Below are positions 423 to 6,232 of a stretch of DNA of 59,471 bases, one piece after another. Under the pieces are notes generated by a model, which saw only the letters and a program-made list of their open reading frames with translations, searched no databases and was not told the origin of the DNA. The stretch's first letter is position 1; every line of letters begins with the position of its first letter. The stretch comes from an uncultured Heliomicrobium sp. (GTDB lineage: Bacteria; Acidobacteriota; Blastocatellia; RBC074): NCBI GenBank assembly GCA_964645355.1, contig CAZXZU010000002.1, forward strand, positions 1-59,471, read 5' to 3'. Made by a program: the position numbers and the translations under genes.

Positions 423-914
423 TTAGCCACTTATCCGCAGGTTTGTCAAATGGACAATTCCCTTACTTTTGACCTTCAGACCGCGAACGGTCTGGTTGTG
501 ATTATTTCCAGTCCAGCCTTCGCCAGCCTTGACGTTGCTCTTGACCTTCAGCCCGCGCGACACCGTCTGATTGTGGTTGTTACCAGTGAAACCCTCGCCC
601 GCTTTGACGCTGCTCTTGACCTTCAATCCGCTCGCCGCCGTCTGGTTGTGGTTCAGAGTGCCGCCGGCCTTGACGTTAGTCTTGACCTTCAGGCCGCGCG
701 CCACTGTCTGGTTGTGATTATTTCCATTGTAGCCTTCGCCAGCCTTGACGTTACTTTTGACCTTCAGACCGCGAACGGTCTGGTTGTGATTAGCTCCAGT
801 GTAGCCTTCGCCAGCCTTGACGTTGGTCTTGACCTTCAGGCTACGCGCCACTGTTTGGTTGTGATTGAGGACGATACCGGGACCACCTGCTTTGACGTTT
901 GTTTTGATTTTCAT
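423..914 (-). CDS. tandem-repeat protein (163 aa): six 22-25 aa units of consensus LKVK(T/S)NVKAG(E/G)G(Y/F/W)(T/N)G(N/A)NHNQTV(x)RG plus a decayed seventh unit
   Basis: The ORF starts exactly at a unit boundary ([11 protein letters not shown]...). AGAGGAAG RBS lies upstream of ATG 914. No signal peptide, no Cys, Lys/Asn/Gly-rich. The plus-strand ORF 411-947 is its antisense shadow. Confidence 0.7.
462..914 (-). repeat. coding tandem repeat, period 66-75 nt, six copies
   Basis: Repetition is visible directly in the DNA (gaccttcag...cgtctggttgtg recurring) and in both the sense and antisense translations. Confidence 0.9.
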
Positions 915-1111
915 TGTGCTTCCTCTTTTCGTTCGTTGCCGTTGTGATTGGCAATAATAACTGCGCTTTGCGCTCCTGCGCTGCCGGCCATCATCGCCTT
1001 CAACCTGACAGGCGAAAAGAAAGAGGCGAACTGATCACGGCTCAGAAGATTTTTTTGATTTTTTTTGGTAGGGCTGTCGGAAGTGAGAATGTATAGAGCC
1101 TGAGCGAGAAA

Positions 1112-4003
1112 TTATCGCGCTCCCAACTTGGCCAGCGCGGCGTCGCATTGGGCCAGGTCGCGTGCAGCTTGTTCGCGCCTTCGGGCGGCGTAGGCGGGCG
1201 CCAGACCTTGCGTCAGCCACTCGTCCCAGATTTGCAGGCTGCGCCGTCGCCACTCGATTGCTTCGCGGGCGGCGGTGATGCGCTGCTGGCGCGGGAGTCG
1301 CCGGTCGGCTGCGAGCGTGGAGTGGAAGCGCCCGAAGCTTTCATAGCAGTAAGCCTGGCCGAGCTGCAGTCCCGGATCGGCAGGATTATTGGCCAGGAGT
1401 TTTTCATTGATGGCCATCGCCTGGCTGTAGTTTTCGAGCGCGCCGCCCGTGTTGCCCAAGCTCAGCATAATGTCTCCCGTAACTGCGTGGGTGCGGCGCA
1501 TTTCGCGGTGATAGACCGTGCGGGTCGCGTCGAGCGCGAAATTTGCCCGCTGCAGTTCAATCGCCTTCCGCAGCCAATCGAGCGCTTCGTGCGGCTGGCC
1601 CGACCGCCAAACGGCGTAACCCAGGCCGCGTTGGGCCAGCGCCTGAATGTCGCGCAACGTAAGGCTTTCGGGGGCGGACTTGCTCAACGCTTCAAAGACG
1701 GAGAGCGATTTCCGGTAGGCCGCCGCCGCCGCCGCCGGGTCGGAATCGCGCAGCATCATCGCCACCCATAACGAAGCCCGCCCCATCGAATCGCGGGCCT
1801 GCGCGTCGTTGGGGTCTACTGCGGCCTCCTTTTCGGCAATCGCCAGCGCCTGGCGATAATGCGCCAGAGCCTCGTCCGCCATCCCCAGGTTCGGTTCGTC
1901 CGGGTCGCCCATCACCCTGGCGATGTCGTTGTGGCGCGAAATCAGCGCCCTCTGGTAAGCGCGGTTCTCCGGCTCGCTCGCGGCCAACTCCTGGCTGAGC
2001 CGAAGCGCCTGGCGATAGGCTTCCAACGCCCCTTCCAAATCACCCACCAGACGAAATAATGTGCCTCCCCGCCGCGAGTAGTTGGTAATCGTCAGCGATT
2101 GAGCCGAATCGCCCGGATGACGCGCCGCCCAACCGGCGGTAATATCGAAGCTGCGTTGCTGGCTGTTTATCGCCGCCGTCATGTCGCCTGCCCTGCGCTC
2201 CAGTTCTGCCATGCGGATGTGCGCGGGTGATTCCAGCCACGGGTTTACTTCCATTTTCGCCGCGTTCATCTTCTCCACCAGGCGCATCGCCGCCCGATAG
2301 CTCTGCTCCATTGCGGCGAAATTCCCTTCGTTGTTGTAATGGTCGCCAATCCGCAAGTTCAGACCGCCGGACTCTTCAAGCAGCCGCTGGTCGGACGGAT
2401 TGCGCGCGATCAATCCCTGGTAAAGCGCCAGTGCCTTTTGCAGGCTGGCCCGCGCCTCAGCGCCCCGGCCCAGATTCTGTTCGCTCGAACTGCCGAGCAC
2501 AGCGGCCACTCGTTCGTAGGCTTGCGCCAAATCCATCTGCAGGCCCGGATCATCGCCCGCTTCCTTCCCCAGATTGTCCAGATATTCAAGCGCCGTGTTG
2601 ACCACCTGCGCACGCACTGCGGTAGAGCCGGGCAGCTTTTTGATTTCGTCGTGGATGTCGAACAGGAAGGTGTTGGCCAGGTTGCGCACCTGCTGAAAGC
2701 GGCGCTCGGCGCGGCGCGCCTGATAAATTGACGCGGCCATACCGCCCATCAAACTCAGCACGATCAGCGCCGCCGCCGCGATTCCCAGTTTGTTGCGCCG
2801 CACGAATTTGCCCGCGCGATAACCGACAGTGTCTTTGCGCGCGGCCACCGGCAAGCCTTCCAGATGGCGGCGAATGTCTTCGCTGAATTGTTCGACTGAA
2901 GCGTAACGGCGTTGGGCTTCTTTGCGCAGCGCCATCAGGACGATGTTGTCCAGATCGCCCATCAGTTGCTTGCGCCAGCGCAAAGGCGCGCCGGTCGTGC
3001 GCCCGACAGCGTCGCTGGGTTTTTCGGCCTCGGACAAACAGACGGTCTCTTGGATTTCGACTGGCGAGTAGGTTTTGAATTGATGCGCGCGCCGTCCCGT
3101 CAGCAATTCGTAAAGCACGGTTCCCAGGCTGTAGATGTCCGAAGCCGTGGTGATCGCGCCTCCGCGCACCTGTTCGGGGCTGGCGTAATCGGGCGTCATC
3201 ATACGCATTCCGGTTTGGGTGAGCGTTGCGGCCTGGCCGGTGTTGGAGGCCAGCAGTTTGGCGATGCCGAAATCCAGAAGTTTTGGCGTGCCGTCCTCAG
3301 TCACCAGAATGTTGGCCGGTTTGATGTCGCGGTGAACGACCAGGTTTTGATGAGCGAACTGGACGGCAGCGCACACCTGACGGAAAAGTTTCAACCGGTC
3401 GGGAATCGAAAGCTCGCGGGCGTCGCAGTAATCGCTGATCGGCTGGCCCGCGATGAACTCCATGACAAAGTAAGGCCGCCCGTCAGGCGTCGTCCCGCCG
3501 TCCAGCAATCGCGCGATGTTCTGATGATTGAGCGAGGCGAGAATCTGACGCTCGCGCCAGAAACGGCGCAACACCAGCCCGGAGTCCATGCCGCGCTTGA
3601 TGACCTTGATGGCGACCTGCTGATTGAATTGATCGTCATCGCGGACTGCCGCGTAAACAGCGCCCATTCCGCCCTGCCCGACCAGCGCGGTAATGCGATA
3701 AACGCCTATGCGTTGGCCGACGATCTCTTCGACAGCGGCGCGAGAGAATGTTTTCGCCCCATCCGCGACCGCCGATTCAAAGAACGTTTCTTCAGCCTCG
3801 TTCGCCAGCAGCGAAGTGATTTCGGCGCGCAATTCATCGTCGCCGTCACAGACTTGCGTCAAAAAAACTTCGCGCTGTTCGGTCGGACGATCAATTGCAT
3901 TCAGAAAAATCTCTTCGACTTGCTGCCAGCGTTCAGGCGTCATGTTGGCAGCCGTCATTTTGTCGGTGGTCATTTTGTCGGTGGTCATTTTGTCGGTGGT
4001 CAT
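1112..4003 (-). CDS. Ser/Thr protein kinase with one TM helix and a long TPR-like C-terminal domain
   Basis: Hanks kinase motifs GQGGMGAVY, VAIKVIK, HRDIKPANIL, DFG and SPEQ. TM segment LGIAAAALIVLSLMGGMAASI. Helical-repeat C-terminus. The exact start is ambiguous among four ATGs between 3958 and 4003. Confidence 0.9.
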   Translation of the reverse strand: MTTDKMTTDKMTTDKMTAANMTPERWQQVEEIFLNAIDRPTEQREVFLTQVCDGDDELRAEITSLLANEAEETFFESAVADGAKTFSRAAVEEIVGQRIGVYRITALVGQGGMGAVYAAVRDDDQFNQQVAIKVIKRGMDSGLVLRRFWRERQILASLNHQNIARLLDGGTTPDGRPYFVMEFIAGQPISDYCDARELSIPDRLKLFRQVCAAVQFAHQNLVVHRDIKPANILVTEDGTPKLLDFGIAKLLASNTGQAATLTQTGMRMMTPDYASPEQVRGGAITTASDIYSLGTVLYELLTGRRAHQFKTYSPVEIQETVCLSEAEKPSDAVGRTTGAPLRWRKQLMGDLDNIVLMALRKEAQRRYASVEQFSEDIRRHLEGLPVAARKDTVGYRAGKFVRRNKLGIAAAALIVLSLMGGMAASIYQARRAERRFQQVRNLANTFLFDIHDEIKKLPGSTAVRAQVVNTALEYLDNLGKEAGDDPGLQMDLAQAYERVAAVLGSSSEQNLGRGAEARASLQKALALYQGLIARNPSDQRLLEESGGLNLRIGDHYNNEGNFAAMEQSYRAAMRLVEKMNAAKMEVNPWLESPAHIRMAELERRAGDMTAAINSQQRSFDITAGWAARHPGDSAQSLTITNYSRRGGTLFRLVGDLEGALEAYRQALRLSQELAASEPENRAYQRALISRHNDIARVMGDPDEPNLGMADEALAHYRQALAIAEKEAAVDPNDAQARDSMGRASLWVAMMLRDSDPAAAAAAYRKSLSVFEALSKSAPESLTLRDIQALAQRGLGYAVWRSGQPHEALDWLRKAIELQRANFALDATRTVYHREMRRTHAVTGDIMLSLGNTGGALENYSQAMAINEKLLANNPADPGLQLGQAYCYESFGRFHSTLAADRRLPRQQRITAAREAIEWRRRSLQIWDEWLTQGLAPAYAARRREQAARDLAQCDAALAKLGAR
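3959..4003 (-). repeat. perfect 15-nt tandem triplication (ATGACCACCGACAAA x3) at the kinase start
   Basis: The plus strand reads tttgtcggtggtcat three times and encodes MTTDK-MTTDK-MTTDK. Each unit carries its own ATG. Confidence 0.95.
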
Positions 4004-5756: not shown

Positions 5757-5784
5757 CCGCAATCCACAATCCGCAATCCGCAAT
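5757..5784. repeat. heptanucleotide tandem repeat CCGCAAT x4 (one unit CCACAAT) in the PqqD/HprK intergenic spacer
   Basis: Read directly at 5757-5784. An inverted partner gttgcggatgtgg at 5729-5741 could pair with 5764-5777. Confidence 0.85.
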
Positions 5785-5788
5785 GGTA

Positions 5789-6232
5789 TTAGCCGCCGAT
5801 TGCGTTCGTCGCAATTGTCGAAGAGCCGGAGAGCGTGACTTGCGTCAACGAGTTCGACAGTGTCAATTGCGGCGGTTCGTAAGTGGGCAATTCGCCGTTT
5901 GTCGCGGCCAACGCACGGTTTGAAACCGTCACGCCGAAATCCGAATGGAAGATCAGCCCGTTGCTGTTCAACTCCGCCAGAAACTCGCGCGTGTCCAACT
6001 CCGCCAGGTCGTCGTTGATGTTGAACGAAGACGCCAGCGCCGCAGTCAGGCTTTCAACCGTATTGGCTGAGCCTGAACGCAATTGTTTCCACAGATAAAC
6101 CGCTGCCGCATTGAGGGTGTAATAATGAAGGTTCTCAAGATCGAGAATGATGCCTTCTCTGTTGTCGAGCAGTTCGGTAAACGATGCCTGCTCTTTGGTG
6201 ACTATTTTCGGGGTACTGGTCTGCATCTGCAT
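5789..6232 (-). CDS. PqqD-family (RiPP recognition element-like) protein with a 50-aa Ser/Thr/Asn-rich C-terminal tail
   Basis: GIILDLENLHYYTLNAAAVYLWKQL...TVESLTAALASSFNI...LDTREFLAELNSNGLIF fits the PqqD fold signature. The tail is SDFGVTVSNRALAATNGELPTYEPPQLTLSNSLTQVTLSGSSTIATNAIGG. Confidence 0.7.
   Translation of the reverse strand: MQMQTSTPKIVTKEQASFTELLDNREGIILDLENLHYYTLNAAAVYLWKQLRSGSANTVESLTAALASSFNINDDLAELDTREFLAELNSNGLIFHSDFGVTVSNRALAATNGELPTYEPPQLTLSNSLTQVTLSGSSTIATNAIGG

Follow-up and report, generated by a model that had tools for sequence, protein, structure and literature searches.

A sigma factor/kinase pair as the very probable regulator of a repeat-peptide export cassette in Blastocatellia

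We analyzed a run of minus-strand genes at positions 423–6232 of a 59,471-nt stretch of DNA (contig CAZXZU010000002.1, assembly GCA_964645355.1; hereafter the window) from an uncultured bacterium assigned to the Blastocatellia of the Acidobacteriota. The run encodes a peptide made of repeated units, an extracytoplasmic function (ECF) sigma factor with a membrane Ser/Thr kinase, an HprK-like P-loop protein, and a PqqD-family protein. It probably consists of two independent units, which are neighbours in this genus alone, and one of them (unit B) is an export cassette regulated by the sigma factor and the kinase. As judged from sequence comparisons, this pair, which is of the ECF43 type, is very probably the dedicated regulator of the repeat-peptide and exporter genes. 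The repeat-peptide family is undescribed, and the cassette joins two known kinds of system, ECF43 signalling and peptide export by an ATP-binding cassette (ABC) transporter with a C39 peptidase domain (C39-ABC). Gene content, synteny, co-inheritance, motifs, and two lesions in the cassette were read directly from the genomes. The window is contig C2 of assembly G000 (7.35 Mb, 643 contigs), and it starts at the contig end inside an insertion sequence (IS) element; therefore, the gene cluster in the window is incomplete.

Sigma factor and kinase genes beside the repeat genes

Twenty repeat loci were fetched from other genomes and mapped with the window proteins. Repeat genes are immediately preceded, on their own strand, by a sigma gene followed by a kinase gene in eight places representing seven genomes, four genera, and two families (L039, L041, L046, L049, L050 (twice), L051, and L053). 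The genomes with this pair upstream of repeat genes include G119, G158, G146, G053, G185 (twice), and G141, and the window has the same arrangement. A first-pass annotation of the window had proposed the ECF sigma factor and the kinase as a dedicated regulator, with co-occurrence with the repeat family as a check. The co-occurrence was found, and the regulatory role is supported by inference from the synteny in four genera, the sigma clade, and the shared promoter-like motif described below.

The kinase orthologues beside repeat genes share 69–89% identity in the kinase domain and 31–38% in the C-terminal domain, and unrelated kinases at the same repeat loci have only 34–36% identity to the window kinase. 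A sigma tree was made from 40 sequences, comprising the paralogues of the present genome and those of the fetched loci. The eight sigma factors beside repeat genes of the basic type form one clade (SH-aLRT 94), and clustering as tight was obtained in 0 of 500 label shuffles. The clade includes two extra sequences from the edge of a contig or locus, whose neighbouring gene is out of view. The chance of an ECF gene within ±10 kb in at least eight of the 20 loci is 4e-4 at p = 0.1, for loci that are not independent of each other. A six-frame scan of G000 for NHN[QE][TA] found multi-unit open reading frames (ORFs) only on C2, C170, C119 (three), C186, C222, and C341. An NHN[QE]T ORF occurs within 8 kb of four of the ~29 ECF loci (C2, C119, C186, and C222), and the repeat ORFs that have no ECF gene within 8 kb are two on C170 and one on C341.

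The repeat gene is preceded by a promoter-like element (Table 1). The same A-tract, GTGATCRATT, 12-nt gap, and TTCGCCTGT precede the ATG by 85–125 nt in the repeat genes of L039, L041, L043, L044, L046, L050 (twice), and L051. The element differs from a sigma70 promoter, and it would act as a promoter read by an alternative sigma factor. A variant, GATGATAGTT ... CCGCCTTA, stands in front of the acidic paralogues described below. The repeat genes of L045 and L060, which follow a GerE-type response regulator, lack the element and have other inverted repeats instead. Upstream of the orthologous sigma genes, the pattern CTTGACA, 17 nt, and CAGAAT is conserved in L039, L041, L046, L049, L050, and L051. 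A hairpin around GGCGATGNTCGCC is predicted at the same place in at least ten loci, including L041, L046, L050, L051, C119, C186, and C222; the stems differ in sequence, and the pairing is kept. This palindrome could be a stem-loop in the 5' leader or an operator. The simplest reading of these elements is that there are three transcription units, namely (NHL-)PD40-PqqD-HprK, sigma-kinase, and the repeat gene(s).

Two further elements were observed elsewhere. A direct repeat, ATCACCAAA(A/G), is present in two copies in place of the GTGATC motif before the second repeat gene of L039 (~9600–9700) and upstream of position 6779 on C119, which suggests a second regulator. On the minus strand of C119 (14883–14913), GATGATAGTT ... 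CCCGTTTA precedes the gene of a 933-aa secreted LamG-like protein beside the sigma-kinase pair of that contig. Because the motif also precedes this gene, the regulons may extend beyond peptides.

The sigma factor matches PF07638 (E 8.8e-55, 185.9 bits; cut-off 21.1) and TIGR02999 (222.1 bits; cut-off 126.15). In ECF43 sigma factors, QTTA or STTA in region 2.2 replaces an acidic DAED patch, and in EcfP and EcfK the Thr receives the phosphate (PMC13147305, PMC8999054). The QPTA of the window sigma factor lies within HTIQPTALIHEAY, at the sigma-2.2 position that is acidic in other ECF sigma factors, according to a reading of the sequence itself. The other hallmarks of ECF43, an adjacent Hanks-type kinase and the lack of an anti-sigma factor, are also present, and L039 has the same arrangement. 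The kinase was described in the first-pass annotation as a membrane Ser/Thr kinase with TPR, and we found a Pkinase domain (E 5.7e-44, residues 102–313), TPR repeats, and one transmembrane segment (~406–428). Its C-terminal TPR-containing domain of ~530 aa is presumed to be located outside the cytoplasm. The L039 orthologue begins with MTPANMTPERW and lacks the 15-nt tandem repeat that lengthens the N-terminus of the window kinase (Table 1).

The pair resembles EcfP/PknT of Vibrio parahaemolyticus and EcfK/PknS of Xanthomonas citri in having a PF07638/TIGR02999 sigma factor with a Thr-bearing QPTA for DAED (family consensus QTTA/STTA), a membrane Hanks-type kinase whose gene follows at once, its start codon overlapping the sigma stop codon, and no anti-sigma factor. 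However, the apparent target here is a repeat-peptide gene with an exporter, in contrast to polymyxin-resistance or type VI secretion genes. In addition, the outer domain of the kinase here is TPR-rich, and the pair is one of ~29 paralogues per genome.

Table 1. Features of the window discussed in the text
Feature	Position	Strand	Description
IS1595-family element, one end	1–462	.	Terminal inverted repeat 439–462; contig ends inside element
Repeat-peptide ORF	423–914	-	163 aa; 5' fragment of longer gene; native part 463–914
Target-site duplication, 8 bp	463–470	.	AAAAGTAA on minus strand; same octamer at C170:2894–2901
Palindrome/5'-leader hairpin (predicted) with GGCGATG	983–1001	-	Just downstream of promoter-like motif of repeat gene
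Promoter-like element of repeat gene	1004–1067	-	A-tract 1045–1067; GTGATCAGTT 1029–1038; 12-nt gap; TTCGCCTGT 1008–1016
Membrane Hanks-type Ser/Thr kinase	1112–4003	-	963 aa; Pkinase and TPR repeats
15-nt perfect tandem repeat, 3.5 copies	3954–4005	.	Spans sigma stop/kinase start; adds MTTDK x3 to kinase N-terminus
ECF43-type sigma factor	4000–4566	-	188 aa; QPTA at residues 53–56
Sigma70-like promoter region (predicted) of sigma-kinase operon	4589–4616	-	TTGACA intact at 4611–4616; -10 degenerate
HprK-like P-loop protein	4666–5712	-	348 aa; last gene of NHL, PD40, PqqD, HprK block
PqqD-family protein	5789–6232	-	147 aa; PF05402, E 5.5e-14; domain residues 26–94, then conserved ~50-aa C-terminal tail
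PD40/TolB-like beta-propeller protein	6288–7232	-	Member of PqqD/HprK block
NHL-repeat protein	7321–11949	-	1542 aa; first gene of PqqD/HprK block

The repeat proteins and their putative export

The repeat gene contains 5.5 copies of a 75-nt unit, with a ribosome-binding site, AAGAGGAAG, 5' of the ATG. The native part of the ORF encodes six units of KVK[T/S]NVKAG, a linker, and NHNQTV.RGL. The protein has 342 metagenome homologues, which have neither names nor a relevant Pfam domain. Searches against Pfam and NCBIfam gave only noise, even at E = 10, and nothing relevant was found in the literature on NHNQT, NHNET, and VKAGG.

The units were compared by collecting 441 of them from 148 proteins. 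The conservation, in percent, is K83 V70 K92 T53 N51 V88 K94 A93 G96 before the linker and N72 H N96 Q96 T89 after it. The first-pass annotation had drawn attention to a conserved Thr in the units, and the Thr of NHNQT is indeed kept in 89% of them. The linker has exactly four residues in half of the units and 3–20 residues otherwise. Long linkers, such as FNPQPDPPG and DPPNPDRH, recur across different genomes. The number of units per protein ranges from one to eight in the proteins counted (mostly 2–4), and it is 11 in the restored gene of the window. Inside the NHNQT blocks, only third-position codon differences were observed in a codon-position test, which is partly circular in that the units were picked by their amino-acid motif. 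An AlphaFold2 model of the repeat protein is all-beta (pLDDT 70.8, pTM 0.66); each unit forms one long strand, and the variable linkers form the turns. A Foldseek search of the model against the Protein Data Bank (PDB) gave no significant match; the top two were the CsgA fibril and FapC (E 0.22 and 0.57; TM-scores 0.19 and 0.12).

Multi-core precursors of ribosomally synthesized and post-translationally modified peptides, such as cyanobactin-like cassettes, combine hypervariable cores between conserved recognition flanks with a dedicated modifying or processing enzyme. The repeat proteins have conserved flanks and variable linkers of 3–20 residues; however, half of the linkers have only four residues, and no modifying enzyme is conserved in the repeat loci. 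Two readings of the unit were dropped. One was an N-glycosylation sequon (N-Q-T), and no glycosyltransferase gene is conserved in the repeat loci. The other was a graspetide, and no ATP-grasp gene is conserved there.

The order of genes in the intact locus L039 is tolB-like, pqqD, hprK, ECF, STK (Ser/Thr kinase), three repeat genes, TPR, HlyD, C39-ABC, and ABC2, with a TPR protein of 371 aa and a C39-peptidase ABC transporter of 968 aa. Among the 20 fetched loci, the steadiest partner is a small cytoplasmic TPR_12/TPR_10 gene, which adjoins the repeat genes in 12; HlyD and C39-ABC are present in nine. The L039 exporter (13676–16582) matches PF03412 (E 2.4e-22) and PF00005, and its C39 domain retains the Cys (DCGPAAL) and His (THFVV) motifs. 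The HlyD gene is located at L039:12399–13679. The best NCBIfam matches of these exporter genes are the NHLM export families, with scores of 167 bits for TIGR03796 (cut-off 853), 120 bits for TIGR03797 (cut-off 709), and 56 bits for TIGR03794 (cut-off 156).

The repeat proteins begin directly with a unit and have neither a signal peptide nor a Sec signal. KAG is present in every unit and is followed by G in about a third. Double-glycine leaders, which end in GG, GA, or GS and are cleaved by the C39 domain, have the consensus LSxxELxxIxGG. The N-terminus of the repeat protein is far shorter than this consensus and unlike it, and the acidic paralogues are closer. The cassette resembles the C39-ABC/HlyD systems of class II bacteriocins, ComC/ComAB, and the NHLP/Nif11 peptides (NHLM; TIGR03794/03796/03797) in that small genes without a Sec signal stand beside HlyD, C39-ABC, and a second ABC gene. 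In contrast to those systems, the substrate here consists of tandem units from its start, with no leader of 15–30 residues; there is no modifying enzyme, and a conserved TPR-only protein is the tightest partner. Taken together, the repeat product is probably an exported and probably processed repeat peptide or protein. It could end as unit-sized peptides, as a beta-rich assembling protein, or as a signalling ligand.

An acidic sister family with units NHNETVEVDLSVEELEAVIAPG was observed in G000 at C119:6039–8498, C186:~12161–12390, C222:~1150–1340, and on C341. On C119, C186, and C222, this acidic variant is transcribed divergently from other sigma-kinase pairs. The LSVEELEAVIAPG of the acidic paralogues is similar to the end of Nif11/NHLP double-glycine leaders. 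On C119, a gene for an 867-aa protein (2447–5050, minus strand) is located downstream of those for the acidic peptides. Its C-terminal half has a significant HlyD match, and its N-terminus has sub-threshold similarity to PqqD (E 0.037) and to M50 peptidases (E 0.08, HEFAH). This protein may combine a recognition domain, a protease, and an adaptor in one fused chain that serves the acidic branch. A distant NHNET-type repeat protein is found in another setting at L058 (GCA_028285035.1 contig, 91935–112510). Its neighbours are BTAD/NB-ARC regulators, three genes for 66–71-aa products, a B12-binding radical SAM enzyme, and a C39-ABC transporter, and the setting looks like a modified-peptide cluster.

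In the window, the repeat gene is interrupted by an IS1595-family element inserted after codon 150. The last 13 residues and the stop codon of the ORF are derived from the element, and the repeat consensus breaks off at ...GLKVKSK. The 24-bp inverted repeat GGGAATTGTCCATTTGACAAACCT matches the other end of the element, C170:2870–2893, in 23 of 24 bases. On the minus strand, the junction in the window reads ...GTCAAAAGTAA and then GGGAATTGTCCATTTGACAAACCT..., and its reverse-complement partner on C170 reads ...AGGTTTGTCAAATGGATAATTCCC, AAAAGTAA, CGTCAAGGCTGG.... When the two flanks are joined, a single open frame results that encodes 263 aa and 11 units. Positions 1–422 of the window have no counterpart in the intact locus L039. 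The element is at least 3.3 kb long (window 1–470 plus C170:1–2901), and the assembly breaks inside it. Its transposase (C170:1868–2821) matches PF12762 (E 1.2e-41) and PF12760 (E 3e-12); the element also carries a DUF6932 gene (C170:308–862) and an unknown gene for 331 aa.

The rest of the repeat gene and the genes of the small TPR protein, the HlyD adaptor, the C39-peptidase ABC exporter, and the second ABC protein are on C170, which is collinear from 2967 on with the right half of L039 (G119:C22, same genus) at 79–86% nucleotide identity. The exporter gene has an in-frame TAG at codon 150 (C170:6908–6910), where L039 has TGG (Trp150). The exporter of G000 may be a pseudogene, or the TAG may be a consensus error of the metagenome-assembled genome (MAG). 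The cassette is thus damaged twice in G000, by the element that splits the first repeat gene and by this TAG in the exporter, provided that the TAG did not arise in assembly.

The PqqD/HprK block

The ORF call gave five minus-strand genes between 423 and 6232. The first-pass annotation had counted six, which is a miscount; its co-directional order, the gaps of 76, 99, and 197 nt, and the ATGA overlap of the sigma and kinase genes were all reproduced. Its family assignments also mostly hold. PqqD, the ECF sigma factor, and the Ser/Thr kinase with TPR were recovered by Pfam and NCBIfam, and the HprK-like protein was matched only below threshold. The sole basis of the latter label is a sub-threshold TIGR04352 match (E 3.5e-10, 39.5 bits; cut-off 200) and the Walker A/P-loop GAQRAGKTT. 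TIGR04353, the partner family in the HprK-related kinase A system, gave 19.7 bits (cut-off 35); both scores are below the curated cut-offs. The names of homologues of the HprK-like protein come from Blastocatellia/Acidobacteriota MAGs, and a search against PDB sequences gave no match at E ≤ 1.

The first-pass annotation had joined all of these genes into a single module and had offered co-occurrence as its test. We surveyed 301 genomes of the class, counting full-length orthologues of HprK. The repeat family is found in 23 of the 301 genomes (12 of 75 genera) and the HprK orthologue in 70, all in family f1. Both are present in ten genomes, the repeat family only in 13 (including all nine of family f6), and HprK only in 60. 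Thus, 13 of the 23 repeat genomes lack HprK and 60 of the 70 HprK genomes lack the repeat family, and the test fails for PqqD/HprK. Within f1, the odds ratio for the two is 0.54 (p = 0.46). The repeat gene and HprK are neighbours in only two of the ten genomes with both, G000 and G119, and in the complete genome G053 they are 2–3 Mb apart. Of the proposed module, the part that joins the sigma factor and kinase to the repeat gene is supported, and the part that adds PqqD and HprK is not.

In three further genomes (L007, L008, and L009), the NHL giant, the PD40 propeller, PqqD, and HprK are followed by unrelated genes, namely a convergent beta-propeller gene, a histidine kinase with a response regulator, and a convergent AAA kinase. 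In these three genomes HprK always comes after NHL, PD40, and PqqD; therefore, PqqD and HprK belong to a separate conserved four-gene block. This block is conserved across one family of Blastocatellia-like Acidobacteria.

The repeat gene had also been regarded as the only peptide candidate nearby. However, PqqD has a nearly invariant Ser/Thr-rich C-terminal tail of its own, LPxYEPPQLxLSNSLxQVTLSGSSTIA (residues ~100–147, window 5789–5935). The tail is almost invariant across five genomes, in which the proteins are otherwise 58–87% identical. It may serve as an in-cis substrate or as a recognition peptide for the HprK-like protein. No hidden precursor ORF with a start codon was found in the 55–99-nt gaps around PqqD and HprK. 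The succession of a PqqD-family and an HprK-like P-loop protein resembles phosphorylated lasso-peptide clusters (HPr-kinase-like PadeK/ThcoK with a PqqD recognition protein) and the HprK-related kinase A system (TIGR04352/TIGR04353). Unlike these systems, the block contains neither a lasso cyclase (Asn-synthetase-like) nor a B2 transglutaminase-like protease or a precursor gene; matches to PF13471 (B2-like) in G000 are found only on contigs C200, C131, and C105. The NCBIfam scores also stay below the cut-offs, the block has an NHL giant and a PD40 propeller as partners, and its PqqD ends in a conserved tail of its own.

Proposed regulation, alternatives, and biological meaning

In the arrangement that we favour, unit A (4666–11949) comprises the NHL giant, PD40, PqqD with its Ser/Thr-rich tail, and the HprK-like protein, and it would have no link to the repeat gene. 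For unit B (423–4616, then C170), we infer phosphorylation of the sigma factor, use of the promoter, export, and a role of the product outside the cell. The sigma70-like promoter would drive the ECF43-type sigma gene and the translationally coupled gene of the membrane Hanks-type kinase. As in EcfP/PknT and EcfK/PknS, which serve as the analogy, the sigma factor would be intrinsically inactive until the kinase phosphorylates the Thr of its region-2.2 QPTA. It would then read the GTGATCRATT ... TTCGCCTGT promoter before the repeat gene(s). The co-encoded cytoplasmic TPR protein would handle the repeat product, and HlyD, the C39-peptidase ABC transporter, and the second ABC protein would export it, possibly once it has been cleaved.

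Several observations weigh against this scheme. Each genome has ~29 similar sigma paralogues; therefore, the cognate sigma factor is not assignable by sequence alone. In L060 the place of the regulator is taken by a histidine kinase and a GerE response regulator, and in L058 by BTAD/NB-ARC proteins; several repeat loci (L038, L043, and L056) have no regulator within 10 kb. The supporting loci come from only seven genomes, several of which are of one genus. The promoter motif was derived from the very loci that it describes, and a genome-wide regular-expression scan for it gave 19 matches, nearly all of which are chance. With a looser two-variant pattern, seven of 28 matches lie within 6 kb of an ECF gene, which is no independent proof because five of these seven went into building the pattern. 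The exporter scores in NCBIfam are far under the equivalog cut-offs. Moreover, export by C39-ABC remains putative because the repeat protein has no canonical double-glycine leader of 15–30 residues.

A passive origin of the sigma-kinase-repeat adjacency, as the mere outcome of many paralogues and with no regulatory meaning, would be helped by the ~29 ECF and 69 kinase matches of G000 and by the ~5% of the genome that lies within 6 kb of an ECF gene. We consider it very unlikely, because order and strand recur in four genera, the adjacent sigma factors are orthologous and form one clade, the chance probability is 4e-4 or less, and the promoter type changes with the type of the neighbouring regulator. 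The single five-gene module appears just as improbable. It supposes that the HprK-like kinase receives the repeat peptide from PqqD and phosphorylates its conserved Thr/Ser residues, and that the ECF/STK pair regulates the process. In phosphorylated lasso systems, peptides are indeed the substrates of HprK-like kinases that work together with PqqD recognition proteins, a link also carried by the NCBIfam family names. The genes here are co-directional with short gaps, their order is kept in G119 (L039), and each unit has a conserved Thr. However, the repeat family and HprK each occur without the other in most of their genomes, as counted above, adjacency is limited to two genomes of one genus, and PqqD and HprK are fixed behind NHL and PD40. 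The sigma operon also has its own promoter-like region between HprK and ECF, and the Ser/Thr tail of PqqD offers an alternative substrate.

With the sigma/kinase-regulated cassette retained, the form of its product can be read in other ways. Tentatively, it could remain uncut as a folded or self-assembling beta-rich protein (amyloid-like or a beta-meander), kept soluble by the TPR protein and exported whole by ABC/HlyD, a reading that we hold to be possible but not probable. The all-beta model has one strand per unit, half of the linkers have exactly the four residues expected for tight hairpins, Asn and Gln are conserved, and the strands alternate between hydrophobic residues and Lys. CsgA and FapC as top Foldseek matches are a hint only, since both are non-significant, and the confidence of the model is moderate. 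Copy numbers of 1 to 8, and 11 in the restored gene, are also unfavourable, as are the long linkers, whose recurrence across genomes suggests a function of their own, and the catalytically intact C39 domain, which would imply cleavage. The functional amyloids CsgA and FapC share with the repeat proteins units of ~20–25 residues, conserved Asn/Gln, variable linkers, and a predicted strand-turn-strand. However, the repeat proteins lack a Sec signal, secretion genes of the CsgG or FapF type are absent, the structural match is non-significant, and the repeat protein is strongly basic (acidic in the paralogues). Rather less likely still, the whole or cut product could be an extracellular signal for the periplasmic TPR domain of the adjacent kinase, giving peptide autoinduction through sigma phosphorylation. 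The kinase and repeat genes are tightly co-inherited, and an exporter is co-encoded. The outer domain of the kinase also diverges much faster than the catalytic domain, as would a ligand-binding part that tracks a variable ligand. Against this, the sigma70-like promoter of the sigma operon gives no sign of autoregulation, and some repeat loci have no kinase nearby.

The apparent link between recognition protein, kinase, and peptide is thus the product of a neighbourhood found in one genus, and PqqD and HprK should not be annotated as maturation enzymes of the repeat peptide. The block of NHL, PD40, PqqD with its tail, and HprK is a separate problem in its own right.

Soil Acidobacteria, Planctomycetes, and their relatives have dozens of ECF43-type sigma/kinase pairs per genome, and the signals and targets of these pairs are scarcely known. 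Only two such pairs have been studied so far, both in Proteobacteria (PMC13147305, PMC8999054). A clade of sigma/kinase pairs that is co-inherited with an unannotated repeat-peptide family, an exporter, and a promoter motif provides a concrete regulon and possibly a ligand. As a speculation that we rate as unlikely, the NHNQT/NHNET repeat proteins may be exported ligands of the expanded orphan ECF43 sigma/Hanks-kinase pairs in soil Acidobacteria and related phyla. If this is true, the fast-evolving periplasmic TPR domain of the kinase would sense the peptide of the neighbouring gene, and autoinduction or kin signalling would operate by sigma phosphorylation instead of a two-component system.

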